Origin: an uncultured Elusimicrobia bacterium
GTDB taxonomy: Bacteria; Elusimicrobiota; Elusimicrobia; UBA1565; UBA9628
NCBI GenBank assembly: GCA_964358485.1
Contig: CAYHPY010000004.1
Coordinates: forward strand, 10,796-74,795
DNA: 64,000 nucleotides
Reading direction: 5' to 3'
Shown here: piece after piece, positions 7,289 through 45,249 of the stretch
Layout of the letters: the number at the start of each line of letters is the position of its first letter
How positions within the stretch are numbered: the first letter of the stretch is position 1
Made by a program: the position numbers and the translations under genes
Notes under the pieces: model-generated
What the model saw: the letters and a program-made list of their open reading frames with translations, nothing else
The model's database searches: none
What the model was told of the DNA's origin: nothing

Positions 7289-7318
7289 AGGCGTCCGGGC
7301 ATTATAGTAGAATGGCCC

Positions 7319-24169: not shown

Positions 24170-25214
24170 GCGCGTAAACGGCGAACTGGGGAACCCAGTG
24201 GCCGTAGGCCCCGTAATCGGCCCCGTGCACGGCGTGATCGGCCAGGCCCCGCTTCATGTGCTCTCCGTAGGCGCGGGTGAAGCGCTCCCGAAGCGCCGGG
24301 TCGGACGCCTTGCGGCCCAGGGCCTTCAAGGCCCAGGCCCGGCTCCAGTTCATCCCGAAATGATGGGCGGTGGGTTTTGGTACCGCCGCCAGGCGGTGGG
24401 GAAAAGGTATTAATCGCTCGACGGGAGCCAATTCCGTCTCCGGGAAATCCCGTTGAGCGATTAATGCATTCACTTGTTCCGTTGTCCCAGCCGTTGTTAT
24501 GAAGTAGCTCCATACCCCAAACGGCGAAAAAAACTCGGCGATCGACCGATCATCCCCAAACCCCGGACCCCCTTTTCCCAGAAAGCCTTTTTCCAAATGC
24601 CTTTTCACCGCTTCCTTGCCCGCCTCATTTCCATCGAAAACGAACCAATCATGAAGCCGAGCCAGCGCCCAGGAAGCGTTGAGATACTCCCTGGAATGCG
24701 GCGTCGGGGGGAATTTCTCATAGTAGCCCAACATCGAGGCCGCGGTCTCGCGCGCCAACGGCCGCAGCCGCTCCGGGTCGGACGCGCCCGTCTCCTTGGC
24801 CCACCGGCCATGCTCGGAGGCCAACAGCAAAAACCAGGCCCGGCCATAGGGCATCTCGAAGGCGGGATTCTCCCGGAGCATGGAGGCTTCCTTGGCCACG
24901 CTTTGGGGACTCAGCGAACGGTCCGCCGCCAGGGCCGCCGCGCGCGTTCCCCGCCCGGCCCGGGCGATCCTCAGCAGGGCCCAATGGCCGTGGACCGCCG
25001 AATGCCAGTCATAACAGCCGTGGAAGGCCGCGAATTTCGTGTCCCGGCGGTCGATGTGGGAGGCGATCATGACGGAGAAAGCGTCCAAAGCCTCCTCCGG
25101 AGTGGCCAGGACGGCGGGAGGTTCGACGGGCGAAGGCCGTCGGGCGGGGGAGACGCAGGCCCCCAAGACGCCCGCCGCCGCCAGAACGGCCCCCCGCCGA
25201 GCCCAATTTTTCAT
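24150..25214 (-). CDS. DUF2891-like lipoprotein (hypothetical)
   Basis: It has a lipobox (LGAC) and the motif HGCYDWHSAVHGHW. Its 3' end overlaps the convergent upstream gene by 20 nt. Confidence 0.5.
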   Translation of the reverse strand: MKNWARRGAVLAAAGVLGACVSPARRPSPVEPPAVLATPEEALDAFSVMIASHIDRRDTKFAAFHGCYDWHSAVHGHWALLRIARAGRGTRAAALAADRSLSPQSVAKEASMLRENPAFEMPYGRAWFLLLASEHGRWAKETGASDPERLRPLARETAASMLGYYEKFPPTPHSREYLNASWALARLHDWFVFDGNEAGKEAVKRHLEKGFLGKGGPGFGDDRSIAEFFSPFGVWSYFITTAGTTEQVNALIAQRDFPETELAPVERLIPFPHRLAAVPKPTAHHFGMNWSRAWALKALGRKASDPALRERFTRAYGEHMKRGLADHAVHGADYGAYGHWVPQFAVYALTDRDE

Positions 25215-25309
25215 CCCGCGATGATACGAAATTTTTTCGAATGAATTTGATATACTCCGGGCTGCCCGCGATTGCGGCGAACCTGATTATAGGAAGGGAG
25301 ACAGGCGAA

Positions 25310-25543
25310 ATGGTGACCGGATTGGTGTTGGTGCGGCTGATGTCGGGAAAGGAAAAGGTAGCCTTGAGCCGGATCAAGGAAGTCCCCGGAGTGGCGCACG
25401 TGACGGCCGTCTTCGGGCGCTGGGATCTGGTTTTGGACATCGAGACCGACGATCTGGCCACGCTCTCCAACGTCGTGGTTCGGGGAATCCGCTCGGTCCC
25501 GGGGGTTCTCTCCACCGAGAGCCTCGTGACGACCGCGATTTAA
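25310..25543 (+). CDS. AsnC/Lrp-family ligand-binding (RAM) domain-only protein
   Basis: The ~78-aa product MVTGLVLVRL...VTAVFGRWDLVLDIETDDL matches the Lrp C-terminal RAM domain and lacks an HTH. A GGAGACAGG RBS precedes it. Confidence 0.6.
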   Translation: MVTGLVLVRLMSGKEKVALSRIKEVPGVAHVTAVFGRWDLVLDIETDDLATLSNVVVRGIRSVPGVLSTESLVTTAI

Positions 25544-25552
25544 GCGTCCCCG

Positions 25553-26557
25553 GTGCAACCAGTCCTTTCGATCCGGGGCCTTCGAACCCACTTCAAGACC
25601 GAAGCCGGCGTCGTCCGCGCCGTGGATGGGGTCACCTATGACCTTCTGCCCGGAAAAACCCTGGCCGTTGTCGGCGAGTCCGGCTCCGGCAAGAGCGTCC
25701 ACGCGCTTTCCATCCTCCGCCTGCTTCCGATGCCGCCGGCGGAGATCGTCTCCGGAGAGATCCTATTTCAGGGCCGCGACCTCCTCAAGATGGGCCCCGA
25801 GGAGCTCCGCAAGATCCGGGGCAACCGAATCGCCATGATCTTCCAGGAGCCGATGACCTCGCTCAACCCCGTCCTCAAGGTGGGCGAGCAGATCGCGGAA
25901 TCCCTGATCTGCCACCAAGGGGTCTCCTTCGAGCACGCGATGAAGAAAGCCATCGAGTTGCTTAAGAAAGTGGGCATTCCCCATCCCGAGGAGCGGGTCC
26001 AGGATTACCCCCACCAGTTCTCGGGCGGGATGCGCCAGCGAGCGATGATCGCCATCGCCCTGGCCTGCAAGCCGGACATCCTGATCGCCGACGAACCGAC
26101 CACCGCCCTGGACGTCACCATTCAGGCCCAGATCCTGGAACTGATGAAGGAGCTTCAAAAGGAATACCGGATGGCCATCATCCTCATCACCCACAACATC
26201 GGCGTGGTGGCGGAGATGGCCGACGACGTGGCCGTCATGTACGCGGGACGCCAGGTCGAATTCGGCCCCGTGGGGGAAATCTTCAAGAACCCCCTGCACC
26301 CCTACACCCAGGGCCTGCTCAATTCAGTGCCTTCCATCTACACCCGCAAGGAACGCCTGGAGGCCATCCCCGGCCAGCCGCCGGAGCTCAGCGCCGAGTT
26401 CAAGAACTGCCCGTTCGTGGTCCGCTGCGCCTGCGCCGAGGAGCGCTGCAGGACCCAGGACCCGCCCCAATTCCACCTCGGGGGACGAATGTCCAATTGC
26501 TGGCGGCAGGAAGCCGACTGGAAGCAGACCTCCCACCGGTACGGAGACTCGAAGTGA
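25553..26557 (+). CDS. oligopeptide/dipeptide ABC transporter ATP-binding protein (OppD/DppD type)
   Basis: Walker A GESGSGKS, signature FSGGMRQR and the oligopeptide C-terminal extension with Cys cluster are present. Confidence 0.93.
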
Positions 26558-27570
26558 CCCCGCTGCTCGAAGTCAAGGACCTCAAGAAGCACTTCTCCTC
26601 GCGCAAGGGGCTTTTCGGGGAGGTCGGCACCGTCAAGGCCGTCGACGGCATCAGCTTTTCGGTGTTCCCCAAGGAGAGCTTCGCGGTGGTGGGGGAGTCG
26701 GGCTGCGGAAAAACCACTTTGGGGAAATTGATCCTGGCCCTGGAGCGGCCCACGGGGGGACAGGTGATTTTCCAGGGCAAGGACCTCCACACCATTTCGG
26801 CGGGTTCTCTGCGCGCCCTGCGCAAGGACATCCAGGTCATTTTTCAGGACCCCTTCTCCAGCCTCAACCCCCGCATGACGGTCGAAGACATCCTGAGCGA
26901 GCCCTTCGAGATCCACGGCCTGCTCCCGAATTCCGCCGACCGCCACAAGAAGCTTCTGCGACTCCTGAGCGTCGTCGGCCTGGCCAAATCCCATCTCAAG
27001 CGCCATCCCCACGAATTTTCCGGCGGCCAGCGCCAACGGGTGGGCATCGCGCGGGCCCTGGCCTTGGACCCAAAGCTCATCGTCGCCGACGAGCCGGTGT
27101 CGGCCCTGGACGTCTCGATCCAGGCCCAGATCCTGAACCTGCTCAAGGACCTTCAAAAGGAGTTGAGCCTCACCTACCTTTTCATCTCCCACGACTTCTC
27201 CGTGGTGCGCCACCTCTGCAACCGGATCGCGGTCATGTACCTGGGACGGATGGTGGAGCTGTCCGAATCGGAAATCCTCTTCAAGGACCCGCAGCACCCC
27301 TACACCGAGGCCCTGCTCTCGGCGGTCCCGGTTCCCGACCCCGCCATCGAAAAGCGCCGCCAGCGCGTGCTTTTGACCGGCGACGTCCCCAGCCCGCTGG
27401 ATCCTCCCTCCGGCTGCCGCTTCCATCCCCGCTGCCGCTACGCGCTCCCCGCGTGCGGTTCAGACGTCCCGCCCCTGGCCGAGCTCAAGGATCGTCCCGG
27501 ACATTTCGCCGCCTGCCCCGTCGCCCCGTTCGGCCGCCAACGGAGCAAATGCGCCCTCGTGGAGCTATAA
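26554..27570 (+). CDS. oligopeptide/dipeptide ABC transporter ATP-binding protein (OppF/DppF type)
   Basis: A GTG start overlaps the upstream stop (GTGA). Walker A GESGCGKTT, signature FSGGQRQR and C-terminal CRFHPRCRYALPAC are present. Confidence 0.9.
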   Translation: MTPLLEVKDLKKHFSSRKGLFGEVGTVKAVDGISFSVFPKESFAVVGESGCGKTTLGKLILALERPTGGQVIFQGKDLHTISAGSLRALRKDIQVIFQDPFSSLNPRMTVEDILSEPFEIHGLLPNSADRHKKLLRLLSVVGLAKSHLKRHPHEFSGGQRQRVGIARALALDPKLIVADEPVSALDVSIQAQILNLLKDLQKELSLTYLFISHDFSVVRHLCNRIAVMYLGRMVELSESEILFKDPQHPYTEALLSAVPVPDPAIEKRRQRVLLTGDVPSPLDPPSGCRFHPRCRYALPACGSDVPPLAELKDRPGHFAACPVAPFGRQRSKCALVEL

Positions 27571-27571
27571 C

Positions 27572-29443
27572 ATGAAACCCGCCCCGGCCGAACCCGCCAA
27601 GAAAGCCTTCCAGCCCTTCATCCCGGCGGATCAATCCCCGACCGAAATGACCTGGCGCGGAATGATCATCGGCCTGCTGATCGCCGTCGTCTTCGGCGCC
27701 GGCAACGCCTACCTGGGCCTCAAGGTGGGGATGACGATATCCGCGTCCATCCCCGCGGCCGTGATCTCGATGGCGATCCTCCGGTCCATGAAGGGTTCTT
27801 CGATCCTGGAGAACAACATCGTCCAGACCGTGGGCTCCTCCGGCGAATCCCTGGCGGCCGGCGTCATCTTCACGATCCCGGCCCTCTTTTTCCTCGGAGA
27901 CCACCCGTCCTCCCTGAAAATATTCTGGATCTCGTCTTTGGGCGGCCTTCTGGGAGTCCTCTTCATGATTCCCCTGCGCCGGTATCTCATCGTCCAAGAG
28001 CACGAAACCCTTCCCTTTCCCGAGGGGAAGGCCTGCGCGGAGATTCTCATCGCCGGAGAGGAAGGCGGCTCCAAGGCCCGCCTCGTGGTCTGGGGCGGAG
28101 CGGTGGGGGCGGCCTTCAAGTTCCTCATGAGCGGCGCCCACGCCTGGGTCGACACCGCCAGCTGGACCCTGACCCGCCTGCAGGGCACGGTCGTCAGCCT
28201 GGAGGCCACGCCGTCCTTGCTGGGCGTGGGCTTCATCATCGGGCCCCGCATCGCGGCCATGATGCTCTCCGGCGCGGCCCTGGGCTGGTGGGTCCTCATC
28301 CCCCTGATCAAGATGTTCGGCGAGGGCCTGGCCGCCCCCATTTTCCCGGCCACGGCCCCGATCGGCGAGCTGGCGGCCTCAAAAATCTGGTCCAACTACA
28401 TCCGCTACATCGGCGCGGGCGCGGTGGCCACCGGGGGCCTGGTCGGATTGATCAAGTCCATCCCCATCGTCTCGCGCTCCTTTCGCGCGGGCTTGAAAGA
28501 GGCCTTCGGCGGGGTCGGCGCGAAAGTCGCCGCCTTGCGAACCGACGACGATCTCCCCATGAGCTGGGTGGTTTGGGGCTCGGTGGCCATCATCCTGGCC
28601 CTCTGGCTCACACCGGGGATGAACCTCAATTTGATGGCGATCGCCCTGGTGATCGTGATGGGCTTTTTCTTCGTGACGGTCGCCTCCCTGTCGGTCGGAT
28701 TGGTCGGCTCGTCCTCCAACCCGGTCTCCGGCATGACCATCACCACCCTGCTGGTCACCTGCCTGGTCTTCGTCGGCTTCGGCTGGACCAGCGAAAGCCA
28801 CATGCTCGGCGCCATGATGGTCGGGGCGGTCGTCTGCATCGCCATCTGCATGGCCGGCGACGCCTCCCAGGACCTCAAGACCGGCTACCTCGTCGGGGCG
28901 ACCCCCCGCTTGCAGCAGCTCTCCGAAGTTTTGGGCGTGCTCGTGCCCGCGACCGTGATGGGGGGAACGCTCTTCCTCCTTGATAAGGCCTACGGCCTGG
29001 GATCGGACAAGCTCTCGGCCCCGCAGGCGACCTTGATGAGCCTGGTGGTCAAGGGGGTGCTCCACGGGGATCTTCCCTGGCTGTTGGTGATCACCGGAGC
29101 GGTGATCGGGGCCTGCGTCGAACTGCTGGGCATCGGGTGCCTTCCTTTCGCCATCGGCCTGTACCTGCCGGTCTCCCTGAGCACCCCGATCATGGCCGGG
29201 GGCTTGGTCATGGCGGCGGTCCAGAAATTGGCCGGAGCTCGGGCCGAGGCCGCCAACCAGCGGGGGGTGCTCCTGGCCTCCGGCTTGGTCGCGGGCGACG
29301 CGGTGATGGGAGTGGTCATCGCCCTGTTGGTGGTGACCGGCCTGGTCAACATCGAGGCCGCGCCGCTGGCCGGATCCGGCGCCGCCCTCGCCGCTTTCCT
29401 GGCCGTCGCCGCCTGGCTCGGGGCCCTGAGCCTCAAGAAATGA
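27572..29443 (+). CDS. OPT-family oligopeptide transporter
   Basis: A 623-aa polytopic protein. The OPT motifs NIVQTVGSSGESLAAGV and a repeated 16-TM architecture are present. Confidence 0.88.
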   Translation: MKPAPAEPAKKAFQPFIPADQSPTEMTWRGMIIGLLIAVVFGAGNAYLGLKVGMTISASIPAAVISMAILRSMKGSSILENNIVQTVGSSGESLAAGVIFTIPALFFLGDHPSSLKIFWISSLGGLLGVLFMIPLRRYLIVQEHETLPFPEGKACAEILIAGEEGGSKARLVVWGGAVGAAFKFLMSGAHAWVDTASWTLTRLQGTVVSLEATPSLLGVGFIIGPRIAAMMLSGAALGWWVLIPLIKMFGEGLAAPIFPATAPIGELAASKIWSNYIRYIGAGAVATGGLVGLIKSIPIVSRSFRAGLKEAFGGVGAKVAALRTDDDLPMSWVVWGSVAIILALWLTPGMNLNLMAIALVIVMGFFFVTVASLSVGLVGSSSNPVSGMTITTLLVTCLVFVGFGWTSESHMLGAMMVGAVVCIAICMAGDASQDLKTGYLVGATPRLQQLSEVLGVLVPATVMGGTLFLLDKAYGLGSDKLSAPQATLMSLVVKGVLHGDLPWLLVITGAVIGACVELLGIGCLPFAIGLYLPVSLSTPIMAGGLVMAAVQKLAGARAEAANQRGVLLASGLVAGDAVMGVVIALLVVTGLVNIEAAPLAGSGAALAAFLAVAAWLGALSLKK

Positions 29444-31185
29444 GGCTGCCCGCGCTTTTCCGGGCCGCGGCCCCCCTGGCGCTGCTTTTATCTCCGGCGC
29501 ACGGCCAGCCCAAGAACCCGGACACCTTCACCTACGCCATCATCGGCGACGCCGACAGCCTGGACCCGGCGTGGCAATACGACGGCATCAGCCACGAAAT
29601 CCAATACCAAATTTACGAGACTTTGGTTTTCTACAAAGGGCCCTCGGTTTCGGAGTTCGAACCGATGCTCTCGCGGGTGGTCCCTTCCCGGGAAAACGGC
29701 CTGCTGTCCCAGGACGGATTGCGCTACGCCTTCCCGATCCGTAAAAACGTCAAGTTTCACGACGGCACCCCGCTCACTCCCGAGGACGTCCGCTACTCGA
29801 TTCTCCGATTCCTTCTGACCGACCGGGCCAGCGGCCCCTCCACCTTGCTCCTGGAACCGCTCCTTGGGGTTTTCTCCGTGACCGGGCCCGACGGCAAGCC
29901 GCTCCCCGGAATCTTCAAGGAAGCCGAAAAAGCCGTCACCATCGAGGCCGGGGCCCTGGTCCTCAAGCTCAAGAAACCGGCGGCGCCCCTTCTTTCGATC
30001 CTGGCGGGCTTTTGCCCCGTGGTCTCGAAATCCTTCGTCGTCGCCCACGGCGGCTGGGACGGATCGGAAGGCTCGTGGACCCGCCACCTCAACCCCTCCA
30101 AGCAGGACGCCGCCCTTTACGACCGCGCCAACGGCACCGGGCCCTTCAAGCTCGAGCGCTGGGACAAGGAGAACCGGGCCGTCATCCTTTCGCGCAACGA
30201 GGACTATTGGCGCAAGCCCGCGGCCCTCAAGCGGGTCATCTTCAAGACCGTGCCCGAGTCGGCCACCCGCAAGCTCATGCTCCAGGCCGGAGACGCCGAC
30301 GCCGCCTTTCTGGAGCGGCAATTTTTGCCGCAATTCGAGCGGCTGGAGGGCGTCACGGTCACCGACGACCTGCCGTTCCTCGAGATCCACAACGTCTTCG
30401 TTCCGAACTTTAAAATAACGATGGAAGGGAACCCCTACGTTGGGTCCGGGAAATTAGATGGGGACGGAATAACAAGCGACTTCTTTTCGGACATGGATGT
30501 CCGAAAAGGATTGGCCCACTCCTTCGATTATGACGCCTACATCCGCGACGGCTACCGGGGCAAGGGGCGCCGCGCCCGGGGTCCCGTCCCCTTCGGGGTT
30601 CTGGGCCACAACCCGCGCCAGACCCTCCTGAATTTCGATCCCGCCAAGGCCGCCGAGCACTTCAAGAAGGCCTTCGGCGGCCGCCTTTGGGAGACGGGGT
30701 TCCGCTTTACGGTCCTCTTCATGGAGGGCCGCGCCGACCGCCAGCTCGCCTGCCAGATTCTCAAAGCCCAGGTGGAGGCCCTCAACCCCAAGTTTCATAT
30801 CGAGGTGCGCGGGGTCCAGTGGTCCACCTATCTCAGCCATTTCAGCGCCGGACGCATTCCCATCGCCAACGCCCGGTGGGCCATGGACTTTCCGGACCCC
30901 CACAACGCCGTCCAGCCCTTCCTCCACAGCGCGGGGCATTACGCCAAGCGCCAGGGCTACGCCAATCCCCGCGCGGACGCACTGGTGGAGCGGGCCTGGG
31001 GGGAAACCGATCCCGAAAAGCGAAAAGCCCTTTACGCGGAGCTCCAATCGATCGCTCGCACCGATTTGCCCCAAATTTATACAATCGACACCTACCATCT
31101 TCAGGTGCGCCGAAGCTGGGTGAAGGGGTGGTATTATAATCCGATCGTGGTGTATGGATACCTTTACCCGGTCAGGAAGGATTAG
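29440..31185 (+). CDS. ABC transporter substrate-binding protein, family 5 (peptide/nickel; paralog 1)
   Basis: The start MRLPALFRAAAPLALLLS is inferred (ATGA overlap with OPT). SBP_bac_5 motifs are present (DPAWQYDGISHEIQYQIYETL, DVRKGLAHSFDYD). Confidence 0.88.
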   Translation: MRLPALFRAAAPLALLLSPAHGQPKNPDTFTYAIIGDADSLDPAWQYDGISHEIQYQIYETLVFYKGPSVSEFEPMLSRVVPSRENGLLSQDGLRYAFPIRKNVKFHDGTPLTPEDVRYSILRFLLTDRASGPSTLLLEPLLGVFSVTGPDGKPLPGIFKEAEKAVTIEAGALVLKLKKPAAPLLSILAGFCPVVSKSFVVAHGGWDGSEGSWTRHLNPSKQDAALYDRANGTGPFKLERWDKENRAVILSRNEDYWRKPAALKRVIFKTVPESATRKLMLQAGDADAAFLERQFLPQFERLEGVTVTDDLPFLEIHNVFVPNFKITMEGNPYVGSGKLDGDGITSDFFSDMDVRKGLAHSFDYDAYIRDGYRGKGRRARGPVPFGVLGHNPRQTLLNFDPAKAAEHFKKAFGGRLWETGFRFTVLFMEGRADRQLACQILKAQVEALNPKFHIEVRGVQWSTYLSHFSAGRIPIANARWAMDFPDPHNAVQPFLHSAGHYAKRQGYANPRADALVERAWGETDPEKRKALYAELQSIARTDLPQIYTIDTYHLQVRRSWVKGWYYNPIVVYGYLYPVRKD

Positions 31186-31189
31186 CTTT

Positions 31190-32953
31190 ATGAAACGAAC
31201 AATTTTGGCAACGGCACTGATGGCCGTCTTTATGGCCGCGCCCACGGGCGCGACCATAAAGAATAAAGACACCTTCATCCACCTCACCATCGGCGACCCG
31301 GAGAGCCTGGATCCGGTCTGGTCCTACGACACCGCCAGCCAGAACATCATCGGAAACATCTACGAATACCTTCTTGCCTTCCAGGGCTCCGGCGTGACCC
31401 CCAAGGACCTCATCGGGCGGCTCGCCGAAAAGGTCCCTTCGACCGCCAACGGCCTGCTGTCCAAGGACGGACTCACCTACCGTTTTCCGATCCGCAAAGG
31501 AGTGAAGTTCCAGGACGGCTCCATCCTCACCCCCGAGGACGTGCGGTACTCCTTCCTTCGTTTCCTGCTGGTCGACCGCGACGGGGGGCCCTCGTCGCTT
31601 CTGTTGGAGCCCCTCCTCGGCGTGACCGGAACCCGGGGCCCGGACGGGAAAATGCTTCCCGGAATCTACGACCGCGCTGCCAAGGCGGTCAGCTTGGAAG
31701 GGACTACTCTCGTCATCCGTCTGGACAAGCCCTTCGCCCCGTTCTTGAGCATTCTGGCCAGCTTCGGAGCCATCGTCTCCAAACCCTGGTGCGTCGCCAA
31801 GGGGGAATGGGACGGGACCCCCGAGGGCCTGGCGACCCACAACAATCCCAAGCGGGAGTCGTCCCACCTCCTGGACCACGCCAACGGAACCGGGCCCTTT
31901 TCCCTGGAGCGTTTCGACAAGGCCACCAAGGAAATCTTCTTGGCCCGGCACGACGGCTACTGGCGGGGACCCGCCAAGCTCAAGCGCGTCATCGTCAAGG
32001 TCATCGACGAGTTCGCCACCCGCAAGCTCAAGATCCAAGCCGGGGACGCCGACACCATCTACGGCCCGCAAATGTATTTTCCCCAGCTTCAAGGCTTGGA
32101 CGGCGTCGAAGTGATCGACGGGCTCCAGAATCTGGAAAGAAGCTCGATCGTCTTTTTCACGTTCAAGTCGAATCCTTCGGGAAATCCAAATCTGGGATCC
32201 GGGAAATTAGACGGGAACGGAATACCGCCCGACTTCTTTTCGGACATAAATGTCCGAAAAGGATTCGCCTACTCCATCGACTATGAAGGTTATGTCCGGG
32301 ATATCCTGCGGGGAAAGGGGCGCCAAGCCGTCAGCTTCATTCCCCAGGGCCTGGTGGGCTACAAGGCCGACCTGCCCAAGCATACCTTCGACCCGAAGAA
32401 AGCCGAAGAGCACATGAAAAAGGCGTGGGGGGGAAAGGCCTGGGAAAACGGCTTCAAGCTCACCATGGTTTTCAACGCCGGCTCGGCCCCGGCCCAGACC
32501 GTTTGCCAGATGATCAAGAAGAACGTCGAGGCTTTGAACCCCAAGTTCAAGATCGACGTGCGCAGCCTGCAGTGGTCCTCATTCCTCGAGCAGAACCAGG
32601 CGGGCAAGACCCCGCTCTACCTGGGAGCCTGGCAGGCGGATTACCCGGACGCGCATAATTTCGCCTTTCCCTTGCTGCACTCCAAGGGCTATTTCCCCGG
32701 CAAGCAGCGCTACGCCAACCCCGAGGTGGACCGGCTCATCGAGGAGGCCGCCCGGACCCAGGACTCGGCCAAGCGCGAGAAGCTTTACGTGAAGCTCCAG
32801 AAGATCGTCTTCGAAGACGTCCCCCACGTCCAAATTTCCGAAGGAGTCCGCTACCGCACCCAACGCACCTGGGTCAAAGGCTTCGTCTTCAACCCGATCT
32901 TCCCGGACTCGCCCTACGGAAGCTATTTCTACGATCTGAGGAAGGAGGAATGA
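31190..32953 (+). CDS. ABC transporter substrate-binding protein, family 5 (paralog 2)
   Basis: MKRTILATALMAVFMAAPTGA is the signal peptide. It is a paralog of the flanking SBPs. Confidence 0.88.
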   Translation: MKRTILATALMAVFMAAPTGATIKNKDTFIHLTIGDPESLDPVWSYDTASQNIIGNIYEYLLAFQGSGVTPKDLIGRLAEKVPSTANGLLSKDGLTYRFPIRKGVKFQDGSILTPEDVRYSFLRFLLVDRDGGPSSLLLEPLLGVTGTRGPDGKMLPGIYDRAAKAVSLEGTTLVIRLDKPFAPFLSILASFGAIVSKPWCVAKGEWDGTPEGLATHNNPKRESSHLLDHANGTGPFSLERFDKATKEIFLARHDGYWRGPAKLKRVIVKVIDEFATRKLKIQAGDADTIYGPQMYFPQLQGLDGVEVIDGLQNLERSSIVFFTFKSNPSGNPNLGSGKLDGNGIPPDFFSDINVRKGFAYSIDYEGYVRDILRGKGRQAVSFIPQGLVGYKADLPKHTFDPKKAEEHMKKAWGGKAWENGFKLTMVFNAGSAPAQTVCQMIKKNVEALNPKFKIDVRSLQWSSFLEQNQAGKTPLYLGAWQADYPDAHNFAFPLLHSKGYFPGKQRYANPEVDRLIEEAARTQDSAKREKLYVKLQKIVFEDVPHVQISEGVRYRTQRTWVKGFVFNPIFPDSPYGSYFYDLRKEE

Positions 32954-34701
32954 TGAAGCTCTGGACCCTCGCCGCCCTTCTGGGCCTATCCCTGACCGCG
33001 GCCGCCGCCCCCGTCAAGGACCCCGACACCTACACCTACCTCACCTTGTCCGACCAGGACAGCCTGGACCCGGCGTACTCCTACGACACGGCCAGCCACC
33101 TGGTCATCTTCAACGTTTACGAGTCCCTGTTCTTCTACGACGGCTCCTCCACCGAGAAGCTGGTCCCCCACCTGGCGACCAAGGTCCCCTCCCGGGCCAA
33201 CGGCCTGATCTCGCCGGACGGCAAGACCTACACCATTCCCCTGCGCAAGGGCGTCAAGTTCCAGGACGGCAGCCCCTTCACGCCCGAGGACGCGCGCTAT
33301 TCGCTCATGCGCTTCATGCTCCAGGACCGCGACGCCGGCCCCTCGTCTTTGCTCATGGAGCCCCTGTTGGGCTACCCGGCCACCCGCGACGCGAAGGGCG
33401 TCCTCAACCCCAACTCCTGGAAAGACGCCGACAAGGCGGTTTCCCTGAAGGGGGACAACCTCATCTTGAAACTGCCCCGCCCGGACGCGTCCATCCTCAC
33501 CATCCTGGCCCAATGGGCGCCGATCGTGTCCCGGGCCTGGGCCGTCAAGAACGGCGATTGGGATGGGACCGAGGCGACTTGGGCCAAATTCAACAATCCC
33601 AAGAAGGAATCCACCCCCTTCTACAACCGCATGAACGGCACCGGCCCCTTCGCCCTGGAGCGCTGGGACAGCACCACCAAGACCATGATCCTGGCCCGCA
33701 ACGAGGGCTACTGGCGGGCGCCGGCCAAGCTCAAGCGCGTCATCATCAAGGGCGTGGACGAGTTCGCGACCCGCAAGCTCAAGCTCCAAGCCGGCGACGC
33801 CGACGCCATCTACGCGGACCGCCCCGTCATCAGCCAGCTCGAGGGCATCGAGGGCGTCCAGCTCATCGACGATTTGCCGACGGTGGAGATGAATCCCGCG
33901 GTTTACTTCACGTTCGACATCAACCCAACGGGAAATCCGAACATCGGATCTGGAAAATTTGATGGGGACGGAATAACAAAAGACTTCTTTGCGGACATAA
34001 ATGTCCGCAAAGGATTTGCCTACTCCTTCGACTACGAGGGCTTTCTCAAGGACGTCTTCCGGGGCAAGGGCGTGCAGGCCACCAGCGCCATCCCGCGCGC
34101 CCTGGCCGGGCACAACCCCAAGCAGAAGACCTACAAATTCGACCCCGCCAAGGCCGCCGAGCATTTCAAGAAGGCCCACGGCGGCAAGGTCTGGGAGAAG
34201 GGCTTCCGCTTCACCTTGACCTTCAACTCGGGCAACGTCCCGCGCCAGACCCTGTGCCAGATCATCAAGCGCAACGTCGAGGCCCTCAACCCGAAATTCC
34301 GCATCGACGTCCGCCCGGTCCAATGGTCCACCTTCCTGGACGGCCAGAAGGCCCACAAGCTCCCCATGTTCACCCTGGGTTGGAACGCGGACTACCCGGA
34401 CCCGCACAACTTCACCTTCCCGTTCTATCACTCCAAGGGGCAGTACCCCGTGGTCCAAAATTACTCCAATCCCGCCATGGACAAGCTGGTGGAGGCGGGC
34501 CAGAAGGAGACCGACCCCGCCAAGCGCAAAAAGATCTATTTCGAGCTGCAGGCCCTGGCCTACGAAGAGGTCCCGCACCTGGTCCTGGTGGACACCGCGA
34601 AGTTCCGGACCCAGCGCTCCTGGGTCAAAGGATGGTACCACAACCCCATCTTCCCGGACTCCCCGTACGGGAGCTATTTCTACCCGATCTACAAACAATA
34701 A
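32950..34701 (+). CDS. ABC transporter substrate-binding protein, family 5 (paralog 3)
   Basis: MMKLWTLAALLGLSLTAAAA is the signal peptide. It overlaps the upstream gene by 4 nt. Confidence 0.88.
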   Translation: MMKLWTLAALLGLSLTAAAAPVKDPDTYTYLTLSDQDSLDPAYSYDTASHLVIFNVYESLFFYDGSSTEKLVPHLATKVPSRANGLISPDGKTYTIPLRKGVKFQDGSPFTPEDARYSLMRFMLQDRDAGPSSLLMEPLLGYPATRDAKGVLNPNSWKDADKAVSLKGDNLILKLPRPDASILTILAQWAPIVSRAWAVKNGDWDGTEATWAKFNNPKKESTPFYNRMNGTGPFALERWDSTTKTMILARNEGYWRAPAKLKRVIIKGVDEFATRKLKLQAGDADAIYADRPVISQLEGIEGVQLIDDLPTVEMNPAVYFTFDINPTGNPNIGSGKFDGDGITKDFFADINVRKGFAYSFDYEGFLKDVFRGKGVQATSAIPRALAGHNPKQKTYKFDPAKAAEHFKKAHGGKVWEKGFRFTLTFNSGNVPRQTLCQIIKRNVEALNPKFRIDVRPVQWSTFLDGQKAHKLPMFTLGWNADYPDPHNFTFPFYHSKGQYPVVQNYSNPAMDKLVEAGQKETDPAKRKKIYFELQALAYEEVPHLVLVDTAKFRTQRSWVKGWYHNPIFPDSPYGSYFYPIYKQ

Positions 34702-35726
34702 TGCTCAAGTTCATCCTCAAGCGCCTCGCCTTCCTGCCCTTCGTGATGTTCGGGGTGACGATTCTGCTGTTTACGTGCCTGCAGTTCCTTTCCCCGGAGA
34801 TGCGGGCGGCGCTCTACGTCAAGGACCCCCGCCAGCTTTCGGCGCTGGAATCGGTCATCCAGAAGTACCGCCTGCGCGATCCCATGCCCGTGCAGTATTG
34901 GCTCTGGCTCAAGCAGGTGGCCCACGGGGATCTGGGCTACTCCGAGACGGCCAAGATGCCGGTATCCGACGCCGTCCGGGCCTTCTTCCCGGCGACTTTC
35001 GAACTCACCGTGGCGGCCTTCTTCCCGATCCTGATCATCGGGGTCTGGTTCGGAGTCCTTTCGGCGGTGCACAAGGACAAGGCCATCGACCACGCGACGC
35101 GCTTTGTGGCCATCACCGGGTATTCCCTGCCCAGCTTCGTGCTGGGCCTGGTCCTGCTCATGGTCTTCTACGGCAAGCTCCAAATGTTCCCGCCGGGGCG
35201 CTACTCCCTGGAGGTGGACCTTTTGGTCCACCAGGAAAGCTTCAAGCACTACACGAGCATTTTGACCCTGGACACCTTGCTCAACGGCGAGCCCCGCGCC
35301 TGCCTGGACGTGCTCAAGCACCTGGTCCTGCCGGCGACGACTTTGATCTACATCAGCGTGGCCCTGCTTTTGCGCATCACCCGGTCCTCCATGCTCGAGG
35401 AGCTCTCCAAGGATTACGTCCGCACCGCCCGGGCCAAGGGCCTTCCGGAGAGCACGGTGATCCGCAAGCACGCCCTGCGCAACGCCCTGATCCCGGTCGT
35501 GACCCTGTCGAGCCTGCTCTTCATCGGCCTGCTGGGCGGCGTGGTCATCACCGAAACGGTCTTCGATTTCCCCGGGATCGGGCGCTGGGGCGTCAACGCC
35601 GCGGTCCAACTCGACATCCCCGGGGTGCTGGGCTCGACCTTGCTGGCCGCGACGCTTTTTGTGATGGCGAATTTGATTTCGGATCTGCTGTATGCCGTCG
35701 TGGATCCCCGGATTCGGATGGGCTGA
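34701..35726 (+). CDS. peptide ABC transporter permease (OppB/DppB type)
   Basis: The start MLKFILKRLAFLPFVMFGV is inferred (TAATG overlap). The BPD_transp_1 EAA-loop region (YVRTARAKGLPE) is present. Confidence 0.9.
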   Translation: MLKFILKRLAFLPFVMFGVTILLFTCLQFLSPEMRAALYVKDPRQLSALESVIQKYRLRDPMPVQYWLWLKQVAHGDLGYSETAKMPVSDAVRAFFPATFELTVAAFFPILIIGVWFGVLSAVHKDKAIDHATRFVAITGYSLPSFVLGLVLLMVFYGKLQMFPPGRYSLEVDLLVHQESFKHYTSILTLDTLLNGEPRACLDVLKHLVLPATTLIYISVALLLRITRSSMLEELSKDYVRTARAKGLPESTVIRKHALRNALIPVVTLSSLLFIGLLGGVVITETVFDFPGIGRWGVNAAVQLDIPGVLGSTLLAATLFVMANLISDLLYAVVDPRIRMG

Positions 35727-35728
35727 CG

Positions 35729-36667
35729 ATGGAAACGACATTAAGCCCATCCGAATTGAATTCCGTTTCTTCCGTTGACGAGAAGCCGTCGGCGTTGGTC
35801 CGAGCTTGGAAAATCCTAAAACGCCGGCCGATGTCCCTTTTGGGCATAGCCCTGATCGGCTCCTTTTTCCTCGTCGCCGTATTCGCGCCCGTCCTCGCGC
35901 CGCCCGCCCCCAATTCCCGCGACGCCTACCTGATCCCCCAGGACGGCTACAGCCCCGACCCGGTCCGGCCCAGCGCCGCGCACCGCTTCGGCACCACCGA
36001 ACAGCAATTCGACCTTTACTACGGAATGGTGTGGGGGACCCGGACGGCCTTCCGGGTGGCCCTGAGCGTGGTCGTGACCTCTTTGATCATCGGCGTCCTC
36101 ATGGGCGCGGTGGCCGGCTTTTACGGGGGCTGGGTCGACGAGGCCATCATGCGCTTCACCGACATCATGCTGGCCTTCCCGGACATGGTCCTGGCCGTCG
36201 TCATCGTGGCGGTCCGCGGCCCCAGCCTGCACAACGTCATGGTGGCCGTGACGGTCGTCTCCTGGCCGTCCTACGCCCGCCTGCTTCGAGGCGACGTCCT
36301 CTCTCTCAAGGAGCGGGATTTCGTCCTGGCCGCGCGCGCCTTGGGCGCCTCCGACGCGCGGATTCTCCTGCGCCACATCATCCCCAACGCCATCTACCCG
36401 GTCCTGGTCGTGGCCTCCCTGAGCATGGGCCGCATCGTCATCACCGCCGCCGCCCTGAGCTTCCTGGGGCTGGGCGCCCCGGTGGGCTACGCCGATTGGG
36501 GACAGCTCATTTCCCTGTCCCGCAACTGGATCCTGGGCAGTTCCGGCAATCCCTTCGAGTTCTGGCACACCGTCTTCATTCCGGGATTCACCATCTTCCT
36601 CTTCGTCCTCGGCTGGAACCTCCTAGGAGACGCCGTCCGCGACATCCTCGACCCCCGCCAAAAATAA
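35729..36667 (+). CDS. peptide ABC transporter permease (OppC/DppC type)
   Basis: METTLSPSEL... is followed by the OppC N-terminal region and permease core (ARALGASDARILLRHIIPNA). Confidence 0.88.
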   Translation: METTLSPSELNSVSSVDEKPSALVRAWKILKRRPMSLLGIALIGSFFLVAVFAPVLAPPAPNSRDAYLIPQDGYSPDPVRPSAAHRFGTTEQQFDLYYGMVWGTRTAFRVALSVVVTSLIIGVLMGAVAGFYGGWVDEAIMRFTDIMLAFPDMVLAVVIVAVRGPSLHNVMVAVTVVSWPSYARLLRGDVLSLKERDFVLAARALGASDARILLRHIIPNAIYPVLVVASLSMGRIVITAAALSFLGLGAPVGYADWGQLISLSRNWILGSSGNPFEFWHTVFIPGFTIFLFVLGWNLLGDAVRDILDPRQK

Positions 36668-36681
36668 CAATCGGAGAACGC

Positions 36682-38277
36682 ATGAACCTCAACGACCTCT
36701 TGGACCAATCGGCCGCCGCCAATTCCGGCGCCCTCGCCTTCGTATCGCAAAATTCCAGCATCACCTACGGGGAGCTGCGCCGCGCGGTTTTGGAAACCGC
36801 CGGGGGCTTCGCCAAAAGGGGGGTCGGCCCGGGCCACTGCGTGGCCATCATCCACCGCAACAGCCAGGATTTCGTCATCGCCTACCTCGCCCTCAACCGG
36901 CTGGGCGCCATCGGCGTTCCGATCAATTTCATGATCCAGAAGGCCGAGGAATTGGCCTACATGCTCAAGGATTGCGGCGCGGTCGGGGTCGTGTCTCAAA
37001 AGGAGTTCCTCAAAGGCGTCCGGGCCGCCGTGGCCCTGGCCCCGACCGTCAAAACCCTCTGGGTGACCGACGTCCCGGATTCGGAATTGAAAAAAGGGGA
37101 GGAATGGTTCTCCCGCCTTCGGCAATTCGGGGATTCCTTCCCCGCCCGGACGGTTTCGGAATCCGACGTGGCCGCCATCCTCTACACCTCCGGGACCACC
37201 GGCTCACCCAAGGGCGTGATGCTGACGCACCGCAACCTGGTCACCAACGCCGACGCCGCCATCAAAGTCATGCGCCTCAAAAAATCCGACGTCGGGCTCT
37301 GCATCCTGCCCATGTTCCACAGCTTCGCCTGGACCGGCTGCGTTCTGGTGCCCCTGCGCCTGGGGACCAAGGCGGTTATCTCCCCGGCCATCACCCCGGC
37401 AAAACCCTGGCTCAAGCTCATGGCGTCCCACGGGGTGACGCTGTTTGCGGCCGTGCCCCAGCTTTACGCCGTCCTGGCCAAGGAGGTCACCGGCCTCAAG
37501 GGCCTGGTGATGCGCTATTGGTTCTTCCGCAAAGTCCGGCTGGCCATCTCCGGAGCGGCGCCGCTGAGCCCCACGGTCCAGAAGGCCTTCGAAAAGGCCC
37601 TCGGGGTGCCCATCGTGGAGGGTTACGGCCTCACCGAAACCAGCCCCGTGGCCACCATCAACGTCCCTTCCGCCCGGCGGCGGGGCAGCGTCGGGCCCGC
37701 GGTCCAGGGCGTCCAGCTCAAGATCATCGATGACGCGGAGAAGACCCTCGCGACCGGAGAAGAGGGGGAAATCTGCATCAAGGGCGAGAACGTGATGAAA
37801 GGGTATTACAACCTTCCCGCGGAAACCAAGGCCGCCTTCACCAAGGACGGCTGGTTCAAGACCGGAGACGTGGGCGCGCTCGATGAAAAGGGCTATCTCT
37901 ACATCCGGGACCGCAAGAAGGACATGATCATCGTCAAGGGGCTCAAGGTCTTTTCCGCGCAAGTGGAGGCCAGCCTCCTGGAGCACCCATCCATCGAAGA
38001 GGCGGCCATCATCGGCGTTCCGGATGAGACCGGGGATGAGGTGATCAAGGCCTTCCTCGTCCTGCGCAAGGATTCGCCCGCCGACAAGGCGGCCTTGATG
38101 AAATTCTGCAAGGAAAAGTTCGACCCCTACAAGCGCCCCCGAGACGTCGAGATCGTGGAGTCGCTCCCGAAAAACGCCCTGCAGAAGGTGCTCAAGCGGG
38201 TCCTCCGGGACCGGGAGATGGCCAAGAGGGACGCCGGAGCGCCGCCCCCGCAGTCCGGCCGGAAGGCCGCCGCCTGA
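36682..38277 (+). CDS. long-chain-fatty-acid--CoA ligase (AMP-binding enzyme)
   Basis: A GGAGA RBS precedes the ATG. The AMP-binding motifs YTSGTTGSPKGVMLTH, GYGLTET and C-terminal IVKGLKVF are present. Confidence 0.9.
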   Translation: MNLNDLLDQSAAANSGALAFVSQNSSITYGELRRAVLETAGGFAKRGVGPGHCVAIIHRNSQDFVIAYLALNRLGAIGVPINFMIQKAEELAYMLKDCGAVGVVSQKEFLKGVRAAVALAPTVKTLWVTDVPDSELKKGEEWFSRLRQFGDSFPARTVSESDVAAILYTSGTTGSPKGVMLTHRNLVTNADAAIKVMRLKKSDVGLCILPMFHSFAWTGCVLVPLRLGTKAVISPAITPAKPWLKLMASHGVTLFAAVPQLYAVLAKEVTGLKGLVMRYWFFRKVRLAISGAAPLSPTVQKAFEKALGVPIVEGYGLTETSPVATINVPSARRRGSVGPAVQGVQLKIIDDAEKTLATGEEGEICIKGENVMKGYYNLPAETKAAFTKDGWFKTGDVGALDEKGYLYIRDRKKDMIIVKGLKVFSAQVEASLLEHPSIEEAAIIGVPDETGDEVIKAFLVLRKDSPADKAALMKFCKEKFDPYKRPRDVEIVESLPKNALQKVLKRVLRDREMAKRDAGAPPPQSGRKAAA

Positions 38278-39797: not shown

Positions 39798-39831
39798 TTA
39801 AGCAATAGCATACTGTTACTTATAGTGCAGG

Positions 39832-45242: not shown

Positions 45243-45249
45243 GGAACCC

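Follow-up and report, generated by a model that had tools for sequence, protein, structure and literature searches.

A conserved ten-gene nutrient-uptake cluster of uncultured Elusimicrobia combines a predicted ABC peptide importer with three binding proteins, an OPT-family transporter and a stand-alone RAM protein

Ten co-directional genes form a single run in the window, i.e. the whole 64-kb stretch of Elusimicrobia DNA that was analysed (Table 1). They encode, in order, a RAM-only protein, OppD, OppF, an OPT transporter, three family-5 substrate-binding proteins (SBP1 to SBP3), OppB, OppC and an acyl-CoA ligase, which is the content and order that a sequence-only reading had proposed at this place; the RAM-only protein, announced there as 78 aa, has 77. 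This is a genuine nutrient-uptake cluster, made of a predicted ABC peptide importer with three binding proteins, an OPT transporter and a RAM-only protein; only their combination is unusual, each component being of an already known type. The junctions measure, from gene 1 to gene 10, +9, -4, +1, -4, +4, -4, -1, +2 and +14 nt; all are tight, but overlaps, announced for most of them, occur at 4 of the 9 only. The oppF gene starts with a GTG that overlaps the oppD stop (GTGA), and the start of SBP1, a protein with a Sec signal peptide devoid of lipobox, overlaps the OPT stop (ATGA). The OPT protein scored 399 bits against TIGR00733 (cutoff 182.5), and the ligase 484 bits against PRK06187 (cutoff 476). 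No terminator signal above chance was found in the cluster (12 sites for 16 expected), and an Rfam scan matched no family or element. The composite cluster is genuine and, judged from its tight junctions, very probably co-transcribed. The same arrangement was present in independent assemblies (locus L015, and a 12,524-bp ENA contig bearing both OPT and SBP3), therefore an assembly artefact is unlikely. The same strand also encodes a cytosolic M17 leucyl aminopeptidase, 7 kb downstream.

Table 1. Features of the cluster and of its upstream region, in window coordinates.
Feature	Position	Strand	Basis or remark
DUF2891 gene	24150-25214	-	upstream neighbour, divergent from RAM gene
Divergent intergenic region, probable operon promoter and 5' UTR	25215..25309	.	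DUF2891 gene on one side, RAM gene on the other
30-bp imperfect palindrome centred on TTCGAA, possible operator	25224..25253	.	palindrome search; arms 78% complementary
TGATATACT, extended -10-like element (TGn + TATACT)	25248..25256	+	putative promoter element
Stand-alone RAM protein, 77 aa, Lrp/AsnC ligand-binding domain only	25310..25543	+	PF01037 only
OppD-type ABC ATPase, 334 aa	25553..26557	+	PF00005 + PF08352 oligo_HPY; best NCBIfam: OppD, DppD, GsiA
OppF/DppF-type ABC ATPase, 338 aa	26554..27570	+	PRK11308, 411 bits vs cutoff 408
OPT-family secondary transporter, 623 aa, 'short' clade	27572..29443	+	PF03169, E = 4e-106, full length
SBP1, periplasmic family-5 binding protein, 581 aa	29440..31185	+	PF00496
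SBP2, periplasmic family-5 binding protein, 587 aa	31190..32953	+	PF00496
SBP3, periplasmic family-5 binding protein, 583 aa	32950..34701	+	PF00496
OppB/DppB-type permease, 341 aa	34701..35726	+	PF00528 + PF19300; best NCBIfam DppB
OppC/DppC-type permease, 312 aa	35729..36667	+	PF00528 + PF12911 OppC_N
AMP-forming acyl-CoA ligase (FadD-like), 531 aa	36682..38277	+	PF00501 + PF13193

Upstream of the RAM gene, the motifs TTCGAA (25236-25241) and TATACT (25251-25256) both exist, but they are 9 nt apart and not 17, so that their earlier reading as a -35 box and a -10 box with an N17 spacer is wrong. A sigma-70 scan of 24900-39900 returned no site. The 9-mer TGATATACT is the sole match to TGNTATAMT in the 64-kb window (0.09 expected), and of 37 loci only L032 and L015 have the identical 9-mer, at the equivalent place 5' of the RAM gene; it fits an extended -10 element, a function that we infer. 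The ribosome-binding site GGAAGGGAG lies 9-17 nt ahead of the RAM ATG, and the block TATAGGAAG(G/T)GAG is kept in L032, while the whole intergenic region is identical in L015. The AAATT/AATTT inverted repeat described previously is present within the palindrome of Table 1, of which 11 of the 15 arm positions match, a score reached by about 1.3% of shuffles, but neither L032 nor L001 conserves it. The palindrome is a possible, weak operator candidate because it is not conserved in these two loci.

As proposed, the RAM protein is devoid of a DNA-binding domain. Its full-length sequence matches DM1 from P. horikoshii (2e1a), PHS023 (2cvi), TTHA0845 from T. thermophilus (2djw) and STS042 from S. 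tokodaii (2zbc), all stand-alone RAM proteins (PDB chains of 75-92 residues, 30-36% identity) with a single RAM domain and no helix-turn-helix. The AlphaFold model (pLDDT 83) displays the same beta-alpha-beta-beta-alpha-beta fold, and Foldseek gave TM-scores of 0.85-0.89 to TTHA0845, DM1 and STS042. Homologues fall into 328 clusters and, among the best 120 of these 328, all but one are 77 aa long, with identities of 75-99%. As a stand-alone RAM module the protein is typical; it is extremely conserved across Elusimicrobia and belongs to an already known and structurally solved class. Amino-acid binding and hetero-octamer formation were described in this class: branched-chain and other amino acids are ligands of both DM1 and STS042, and DM1 also assembles into hetero-octamers with the full-length FL11 (PMC2995911). 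By analogy, the Elusimicrobia protein most likely binds amino acids; a full-length Lrp/AsnC gene, the proposed partner, was not found within the window. Unlike the characterised stand-alone RAM proteins, which are mostly archaeal and for which our literature search found no report of a location beside transporter genes, the Elusimicrobia RAM gene precedes oppD by 0-9 nt in three genomes, and its degree of conservation across the phylum is unusually high.

The ABC components resemble the Dpp/Opp family (TC 3.A.1.5) and Gsi: the ATPases are similar to GsiA, DppD/F and OppD/F, the permeases to DppB/C and GsiC/D, and the binding proteins to DppA, GsiB and GbpA. However, the equivalog scores all fall well short of their cutoffs, which makes the system a distant branch with predicted substrates. 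An ATPase-first order had been considered atypical, but E. coli iaaA-gsiA-gsiB-gsiC-gsiD has the same one, with the ATPase gene ahead of those of the binding protein and the two permeases; here, the order arises because two modules are joined. The locus differs from GsiABCD by two separate ATPase genes instead of a fused one, by three binding proteins instead of one, by the OPT gene between the ATPase and SBP genes, and by the RAM-only gene at its head.

As had been suggested, SBP1 to SBP3 are true paralogues. They share 51-56% pairwise identity and fall into three separate orthologue clades, with SBP1 orthologues in L001, L032 and L035, SBP2 orthologues in L033/L034, L032 and L035, and SBP3, the most widely conserved, having 60-70% identical orthologues throughout Elusimicrobia; they are ancient paralogues, judged by these clades. 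Their nearest solved structures are GbpA/HbpA, DppA, GsiB/YliB and OppA, and not NikA (HbpA/GbpA and DppA for SBP1, GbpA and DppA for SBP2). SBP3 Asp481 falls at chain residue 408 of 1dpp in the HMMER alignment, and an Asp is present at this position in every full-length SBP member. In DppA, Asp408 anchors the peptide amino group and Arg355 binds the peptide carboxylate; the position of the latter is not clearly conserved in the SBP alignment. Possession of several binding proteins was rejected as an oddity, since it has a precedent in the Opp system of B. burgdorferi (oppA1-A3 and others), in which several paralogous family-5 SBPs share one permease/ATPase set. The oppA genes are presumably in tandem and first in order there. 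The Borrelia cluster has neither OPT nor RAM protein, and DppA/GbpA are nearer relatives of the Elusimicrobia SBPs than OppA is. The use of several tandem binding proteins by a single permease is thus a known design, and their structural variation widens the peptide range in Borrelia (PMC5736914).

The OPT protein carries a full-length OPT domain above the TIGR00733 cutoff, like prokaryotic OPTs (TC 2.A.67) such as C. jejuni CptA, which is cited in PMC7340319 for Cys-Gly import. Among solved structures its sole relative is YS1 of barley (7wsr, E = 1e-10), an iron-phytosiderophore transporter. To judge from genome context, peptides are what most prokaryotic OPTs transport, and the family tree places these OPTs in its metal-chelate (YSL) half (PMC3061005); the biochemically characterised ones include no close relative of the window OPT. 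The location of this gene within an Opp cluster is indeed unusual, since Opp genes are near none of the roughly 32 OPT loci sampled in other lineages (0 of about 26 distinct loci and 0 of 6 annotated chromid or plasmid loci). Other sampled prokaryotic OPT genes stand alone or have PqqD-family and dipeptidase genes behind them, and none is inside an Opp-type ABC operon. L032 carries in the same slot an OPT of the other deep clade, only 49.5% identical to that of the window and 62-66% identical to Riflebacteria-type OPTs, whereas the flanking genes are 73-85% identical to those of the window. The presence of a different deep-clade OPT between orthologous neighbours argues for selection, and the overlap of the OPT stop with the SBP1 start is found in both loci.

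Orthologous loci do not lack the arrangement: its order recurs in L015, L001, L002, L016 and L032, and it is conserved in a group of uncultured Elusimicrobia. L015 has the same order with a 99% identical OPT, L032 has RAM-D-F-OPT-SBP1-SBP2-SBP3-B-C-ligase-CCA, and L016 has RAM-D-F-OPT-SBP-B-C-ligase. An extra gene stands between oppF and OPT in L002 (D-F-[219 aa]-OPT-SBP-B-C-ligase-CCA), and L001 (RAM-D-[insert]-F-OPT-SBP1) harbors a 3.4-kb insert with an opposite-strand gene between oppD and oppF. L033 and L034 contain SBP2-SBP3-B-C-ligase-CCA downstream of unrelated genes, L034 and L001 coming from the same MAG, where the cluster occupies two loci; L035 and L036 have the second module and not the first. 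The cluster is thus a junction of RAM-oppD-oppF-OPT with SBPs-oppB-oppC-fadD, two modules that are apart in some relatives. The co-directional syntenic run goes on into the gene of a CCA-adding enzyme, which is unrelated, so lineage synteny is not always functional.

We favour, with moderate confidence, the view that the locus is a conserved Elusimicrobia small-peptide uptake operon in which these two modules were joined. The first would contribute the stand-alone RAM protein, the OppD and OppF ATPases and the OPT secondary transporter, and the second the three periplasmic SBPs and the OppB and OppC permeases, with the acyl-CoA ligase behind. ATPases, permeases and SBPs would build one complete Dpp/Gsi/Opp-type ABC importer, whose three receptors probably differ in ligand range, and OPT would cooperate with it by giving peptides or peptide-like compounds a second way in, driven by an ion gradient. 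Junctions this tight imply one transcription unit, with several junctions translationally coupled, which would be expressed from the extended -10-type promoter 5' of the RAM gene. Archaeal DM1 assembles together with a full-length regulator of the Lrp type (PMC2995911), and on this model the RAM protein may make the system responsive to the amino-acid status of the cell. Peptides are predicted as substrates from remote similarity (matches to solved binding proteins at about 1e-30; no close OPT characterised). The ease with which the cluster breaks without gene loss (the L001/L034 split and the inserts of L001 and L002) counts against this explanation. So do the lack of clear conservation at the Arg355 position, the YSL-half placement of prokaryotic OPTs with YS1 as the one solved relative, the continuation of the syntenic run into the CCA-adding enzyme gene, and the absence of a full-length Lrp/AsnC gene from the window.

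This ease of breaking would be expected if OPT were a mere neighbour, an independent transporter that shares a gene order with the ABC genes in one Elusimicrobia clade without functional integration, the ligase being likewise unrelated. L001 and L002 tolerate insertions, the second module exists without RAM-ATPase-OPT in L033-L036, OPT homologues in all other sampled lineages are alone or paired with other genes, and unrelated CCA-adding enzyme and LamG genes are equally syntenic. We nevertheless consider this rather unlikely, given that the oppF-SBP1 slot of L032 keeps an OPT despite its deep-clade replacement, which is hard to explain without selection, that the OPT stop/SBP1 start overlap is shared by the window and L032, and that OPT remains with the ATPases and SBP1 on the L001/L034 split. 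The substrates could also be thiol peptides (glutathione, gamma-glutamyl peptides, Cys-Gly) or metal chelates (nickel, an opine/nicotianamine-like metallophore), ABC and OPT then serving sulfur or metal acquisition. HbpA/GbpA proteins, the top solved relatives of all three SBPs, bind glutathione, and PDB titles name these structures heme-binding protein A; GsiB/YliB is matched too, the ATPases score high against GsiA, and the gene order is that of gsiABCD. The OPT family takes in glutathione and YSL metal-chelate transporters (PMC3061005), with YS1 as the sole solved relative here, Cys-Gly uptake by CptA is among the findings cited in PMC7340319, and some OPT homologues are close to Fur/FeoAB, Suf or tauABCD genes. 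Yet NikA and CntA-type proteins match far more weakly than DppA and GbpA, neither metallophore biosynthesis nor metal-regulator genes are within the window, the regulator-like gene is of the amino-acid-sensor type, and an aminopeptidase gene is close by. This alternative appears improbable, and its glutathione half is a sub-case of small-peptide uptake, glutathione being a tripeptide.

The acyl-CoA ligase gene follows oppC in L002, L016, L032, L033/L034 and L035, and not in L036. An integral role would involve the import of acylated or carboxylate-bearing compounds (N-acyl amino acids, lipopeptides, peptide-released organic acids) that the ligase would convert to CoA thioesters. Such a role could account for the short oppC-ligase spacing (13-21 nt in four genomes, 82 nt in L033/L034) and for a pairing present wherever the second module occurs, bar L036. 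We regard it as very improbable, because no binding-protein feature indicates acylated ligands, L036 retains SBP-oppB-oppC without the ligase, and the equally syntenic CCA-adding enzyme gene indicates that the gene run is not purely functional. This gene being plainly unrelated, synteny alone ties no ligase to peptide uptake, and the link of the ligase with the permease genes, with which it is syntenic, is putative. The ligase is also far less conserved than the permeases, with identities of 48-64% against 71-86%.

The plus strand of the window (G+C ~66%), whose nearest relatives are all metagenome-assembled Elusimicrobia, carries a run of ten genes, the identities of which were confirmed with Pfam and NCBIfam and the starts of which were set directly from the sequence. 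The gene list and order proposed by a sequence-only reading of this DNA were right, whereas its statement that most junctions overlap was overstated: the nine junctions measure +9, -4, +1, -4, +4, -4, -1, +2 and +14 nt, giving overlaps at four of them. With a single strand, minimal intergenic gaps and internal terminators not above chance (12 terminator-like hairpins in the cluster scan versus 16 expected), the run has the features of an operon. A hairpin near the end of the gene for the third substrate-binding protein was discarded as a terminator since it lies within coding sequence repeating a conserved peptide motif. Rfam at gathering thresholds gave no match in 24000-40000. Downstream, gaps of 14 nt (oppC/ligase), 104 nt (ligase/CCA-adding enzyme gene) and 34 nt (CCA-adding enzyme gene/LamG gene) were found. 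Recent horizontal transfer was rejected on composition, the GC3 of the cluster (0.81-0.90) being similar to that of the downstream CCA and LamG genes; the upstream DUF2891 gene has a GC3 of 0.76.

Features of the window and of the compared loci. L001, L002, L015, L016, L032, L035 and L036 are Elusimicrobia loci; L038-L042 are OPT loci of other lineages. D, F, B and C, oppD, oppF, oppB and oppC; SBP, family-5 substrate-binding protein; CCA, CCA-adding enzyme gene.
Locus	Position (nt)	OPT identity to window	Content
Window	25215-25309		95-bp divergent spacer between the RAM gene and the opposite-strand DUF2891 gene
Window	25248-25256		TGATATACT, putative promoter element
Window	25310-38277 (+)		RAM, D, F, OPT, SBP1, SBP2, SBP3, B, C, ligase
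Window	39832-43541		Gene for a 901-aa secreted protein, then PorV-like gene
Window	42534-43541		PorV-like gene
Window	45154-46698 (cluster strand)		M17 leucyl aminopeptidase (PepA-type) gene, 7 kb downstream
Window	55200-61070 (+)		1956-aa ORF
L015		99%	DUF2891(-), RAM, D, F, OPT; contig end
L016		72%	RAM (77 aa), D, F, OPT, one SBP, B, C, ligase
L002		75%	D, F, extra 219-aa gene, OPT, one SBP, B, C, ligase, CCA
L002	2052-2711		219-aa signal-peptide-bearing protein gene between oppF and OPT, overlapping the oppF stop
L032 (3.1-Mb contig)		49.5%	RAM, D, F, OPT, SBP1, SBP2 (two pieces), SBP3, B, C, ligase, CCA
L032	4421-6487		OPT gene (688 aa)
L032	8278-9970		SBP2 orthologue in two reading frames
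L001		82%	DUF2891(-), RAM, D, 3.4-kb insert, F, OPT, SBP1 start
L001	5634-8427		3.4-kb insertion between oppD and oppF
L035 (3.8-Mb genome)			Three SBP slots, B, C, ligase remnants, CCA; ATPase and OPT genes absent upstream
L035	8170-9980		SBP2 orthologue in two reading frames
L036			SBP, B, C only
L038 (NC_012780.1), L039 (NZ_CP019068.1), L040 (NC_002608.1), L041 (NZ_CP073278.1), L042 (NZ_CP007453.1)	OPT ~6900-8900; next gene ~8800-9340		OPT, then small PqqD-family gene (~115 aa)

A promoter had been proposed in the spacer upstream of the RAM gene as TTCGAA-N17-TATACT. Both motifs are present, but only 9 nt separate them, and a consensus sigma-70 scan of 24900-39900 returned no site. The spacer does hold TGATATACT, an extended -10 form that is the sole TGNTATAMT match in the 64 kb, where 0.09 would be expected. 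The identical 9-mer occurs at the equivalent position 5' of the RAM gene of L032, the locus on a 3.1-Mb contig, next to genes whose proteins are just 73-85% identical to those of the window, and a ribosome-binding block, TATAGGAAG(G/T)GAG, is conserved along with it. We infer that TGATATACT is likely the promoter of the cluster, in which case transcription would be expected to begin ~7 nt past TATACT, near 25263. The AAATT/AATTT inverted repeat noted earlier is indeed present, within a 30-bp imperfect palindrome, but is only mildly unusual (~1.3% of shuffles) and not conserved; as L032 and L001 lack it, the palindrome is no more than a weak operator candidate.

Both ATPases match PF00005 and PF08352 (the C-terminal oligo_HPY extension), with OppD/DppD/GsiA and DppF/OppF as best NCBIfam matches, while the permeases match PF00528 with PF19300 (OppB/DppB type) and PF00528 with PF12911 OppC_N (OppC/DppC type). 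The three binding proteins, of 581-587 aa, all match PF00496 (E = 1e-66 to 1e-72) and bear N-terminal hydrophobic signal sequences in their translations. By its ATPases, its permeases and its cluster C binding proteins, the predicted system is an Opp/Dpp (PepT) ABC importer, TC 3.A.1.5. The suggestion that the binding proteins are three paralogues was borne out, since they share 51-56% pairwise identity and form three clades of orthologues in a neighbour-joining tree, each with several genomes represented, and therefore the triplication is of ancient date, with all three copies retained, as would be expected if their ligand ranges differ. In Borrelia, too, several binding proteins are known to serve a single Opp permease (PMC5736914). 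The solved relatives common to SBP1-3 are HbpA/GbpA-type proteins, DppA, a Bacillus-type binding protein, GsiB/YliB and OppA (E ~1e-33 to 1e-25). In the HMMER alignment to DppA (1dpp), Asp481 of SBP3 stands opposite chain residue 408, a position at which SBP1-3 and their full-length orthologues have Asp without exception. Each of these orthologues also has the motif W-x-x-D-[YF]-P-D; at the position of DppA Arg355, no Arg is aligned. We take Asp408 of DppA to anchor the peptide alpha-amino group and Arg355 to bind the carboxylate. We conclude with moderate confidence that SBP1-3 probably bind small peptides or peptide-like amines. An exact look-up of a protein 100% identical to SBP3 (P0121) returned no gene on record.

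The OPT protein matches PF03169 over its full length (356 bits, profile positions 1-623) and TIGR00733 with 399 bits against a cutoff of 182.5, which places the predicted transporter in the OPT family, TC 2.A.67. Members of this family have ~16 transmembrane segments and carry out cation-coupled uptake of oligopeptides or metal chelates; to our knowledge, the bacterial ones are almost uncharacterised. A crude hydropathy scan showed hydrophobic segments throughout, merging so that they give no reliable count, and the sole solved relative is YS1 (E = 1e-10); none of its close relatives is known to be characterised. An OPT gene within an Opp operon is unusual, as had been claimed: Opp-type genes lay near OPT at none of ~26 distinct loci outside the clade, from genomes and metagenomes, and at none of six annotated chromid or plasmid loci. 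A metagenome scan with the window OPT found distant relatives only (47-54% identity), none beside Opp genes, and an exact look-up of the protein returned no gene on record. The review by Gomolplitinant and Saier describes many prokaryotic OPT gene contexts, the Opp operon not among them (PMC3061005).

Within the clade, gene-order comparison showed the arrangement in related loci, where its absence would have spoken against the initial proposal (see the table). An independent 12.5-kb ENA contig of the same species as the window has OPT and SBP3 together, so the arrangement is not an assembly artefact. Judging by lengths shared between the contigs of RAM homologues and those of SBP3 homologues (18729, 21295, 21507, 24443, 65610, 69146 and 127816 bp), seven more contigs probably bear both genes. 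The contigs of L001 and L015 break after OPT; near-identical SBP repeats were dismissed as the cause, the paralogues being only 51-56% identical. In L034, a second contig of the MAG that provided L001, and in L033, another assembly of a near-identical organism, SBP2, SBP3, oppB, oppC, the ligase gene and CCA are preceded by >8 kb of unrelated genes; taken with L001, these contigs place the cluster of this organism at two loci, divided between SBP1 and SBP2. The cluster is thus best described as a first module (RAM-oppD-oppF-OPT) abutting a second one (SBPs-oppB-oppC-ligase). This junction accounts for the ATPase genes coming first, which had been regarded as atypical, and E. coli gsiABCD has the same order of ATPase, binding protein and permeases.

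At the head of the predicted operon, the RAM protein has 77 aa (not 78, as first counted), and, as predicted, it is a stand-alone RAM protein with no DNA-binding domain, PF01037 covering residues 6-73. An ORF start further upstream, which would lengthen the protein, is not conserved. It has full-length sequence matches to solved stand-alone RAM modules, and its AlphaFold model (pLDDT 83) shows the E-H-E-E-H-E order of a beta-alpha-beta-beta-alpha-beta ferredoxin-like fold that superposes on 2djw (TTHA0845), 2e1a (DM1), 2cvi (PHS023) and 2zbc (STS042) with TM 0.85-0.89 and rmsd ~1.6 A. Domain and modelled fold together assign it to the stand-alone RAM modules of the demi-FFRP type. Among 328 clusters of homologues, all but one of the best 120 are 77 aa long with 75-99% identity, and when 23 homologues are aligned, 42 of the 77 positions do not vary; the protein is far more conserved than its neighbours. 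In three genomes its gene lies 0-9 nt 5' of oppD; the distance is 178 nt in L016, the locus with a single SBP gene and a 72% identical OPT. No full-length Lrp/AsnC gene was found within the 64-kb window. Stand-alone RAM proteins bind amino acids, and DM1 co-assembles with the full-length regulator FL11, the physiological role of such proteins being described as unclear (PMC2995911). It is a reasonable inference by analogy that the window protein would be an amino-acid sensor acting on the uptake system.

Taken together, these data lead us to favour, with somewhat better than even confidence, a mechanism in which a single promoter would drive an OPT permease together with a three-receptor ABC importer of Dpp/Gsi-like type, the two offering energetically different routes for peptides, while the RAM protein would relay amino-acid status. 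In one clade of the Elusimicrobia, an almost entirely uncultured group in which nutrition is deduced from genomes, the cluster seems to be a core locus for acquiring peptides. L032 provides the best reason to see OPT as functionally linked to the cluster. Its flanking proteins are orthologous to those of the window (RAM 82%, OppD 76%, OppF 73%, OppB 83% and OppC 85% identity), whereas its OPT falls in the other deep OPT clade, being of the longer type of Riflebacteria and Ozemobacteraceae and 62-66% identical to those. Judged by clade, it is a non-orthologous replacement in place, and thus OPT has been kept in or recruited to the slot twice. This stands against the explanation that OPT and the cluster are mere neighbours with no partnership, as does the fact that OPT stays with the ATPases and SBP1 where L001 and L034 show the cluster split. 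On the other side, L001 tolerates an insertion between oppD and oppF, L002 tolerates one between oppF and OPT, and module 2 occurs alone, all of which speaks against a strict dependence on OPT; mere neighbourhood nevertheless appears unlikely.

A tighter integration is also conceivable, in which the RAM protein would sense intracellular amino acids and gate the OppDF ATPases and/or OPT, with OPT an obligatory partner of the ABC system. RAM, conserved across the phylum and translationally coupled to oppD, would then be a small ferredoxin-fold sensor exerting post-translational feedback, for which GlnK-AmtB, SbtB-SbtA and the cis-acting regulatory domain of MetN are precedents, and OPT might take substrate from SBP1, whose gene overlaps the OPT stop codon. 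Such a partnership would explain the retention of OPT in its slot despite replacement from another clade; we hold the integrated machine to be improbable. Slightly less doubtful, yet still quite unlikely, is that the substrates are thiol peptides or metal chelates: the latter lie within the range of the OPT family, while nickel or metallophore uptake ranked low since matches of the binding proteins to NikA/CntA-type proteins are much weaker than those to the DppA/GbpA set and related genes are absent nearby. A pathway centred on the ligase seems very improbable. The ligase, with PF00501 (312 bits), PF13193 (69 bits; AMP-binding and AMP-binding_C) and PRK06187 (484 bits against a cutoff of 476), is a predicted AMP-forming acyl-CoA synthetase of the ANL superfamily, and its gene follows oppC in five genomes; it is missing from L036 and less conserved than the permeases, and the CCA gene behind it is equally syntenic. 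We count it in the cluster by position only.

Every component of the preferred one-promoter, two-route system comes from a known family. The novelty lies in their conserved combination, chiefly an OPT gene inside an Opp-type operon and a RAM module at its head; we found no description in the searchable literature of OPT inside an opp operon or of a RAM-only protein beside a transporter. Current understanding is not overturned by the cluster. Primary (ABC) and secondary (OPT) transporters under one promoter could reveal substrates of bacterial OPT proteins, three anciently diverged receptors on one permease offer a clean system for ligand-range partitioning, and the cluster places a stand-alone RAM protein in a genomic context.

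Several further observations were made in the compared loci. The SBP2 orthologue is in two reading frames in L032 and L035, both long single-contig genomes, which reflects either a frameshift error of long-read assemblies or a real decay of SBP2 in those lineages. The L001 insertion, seen in one assembly only, breaks the operon with an opposite-strand 332-aa gene and a gene for a 765-aa TPR plus Ser/Thr protein kinase. The 219-aa gene of L002 is absent from the window and L016.

Behind CCA, the 901-aa protein of the window has fn3, Laminin_G_3 and a C-terminal FlgD_ig-like domain, and its pairing with a PorV-like gene suggests a cargo and shuttle of the type-IX-secretion style. A LamG/fn3 gene also lies behind CCA in L032, L033 and L035; the gene after it is PorV-like in L032 and of the UPF0164 family in L033. 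The 1956-aa ORF, segments of which are 27-30% identical to the 901-aa protein, C-terminal domain included, probably encodes another secreted surface protein. The aminopeptidase gene would fit a system in which imported peptides are degraded in the cytosol.

Finally, the usual successor of OPT at the chromid and plasmid loci is a PqqD-family gene, a partner that the window OPT does not have. Among L038-L042, from Lachnospira, Clostridium, Peptoclostridium and two haloarchaea, the two genes overlap in four of five loci, with a gap of ~80 nt in L038, and in two an aminoacyl-histidine dipeptidase gene comes next. This OPT-PqqD pair, common to bacteria and archaea, may point to a peptide-binding accessory protein that partners OPT transporters.
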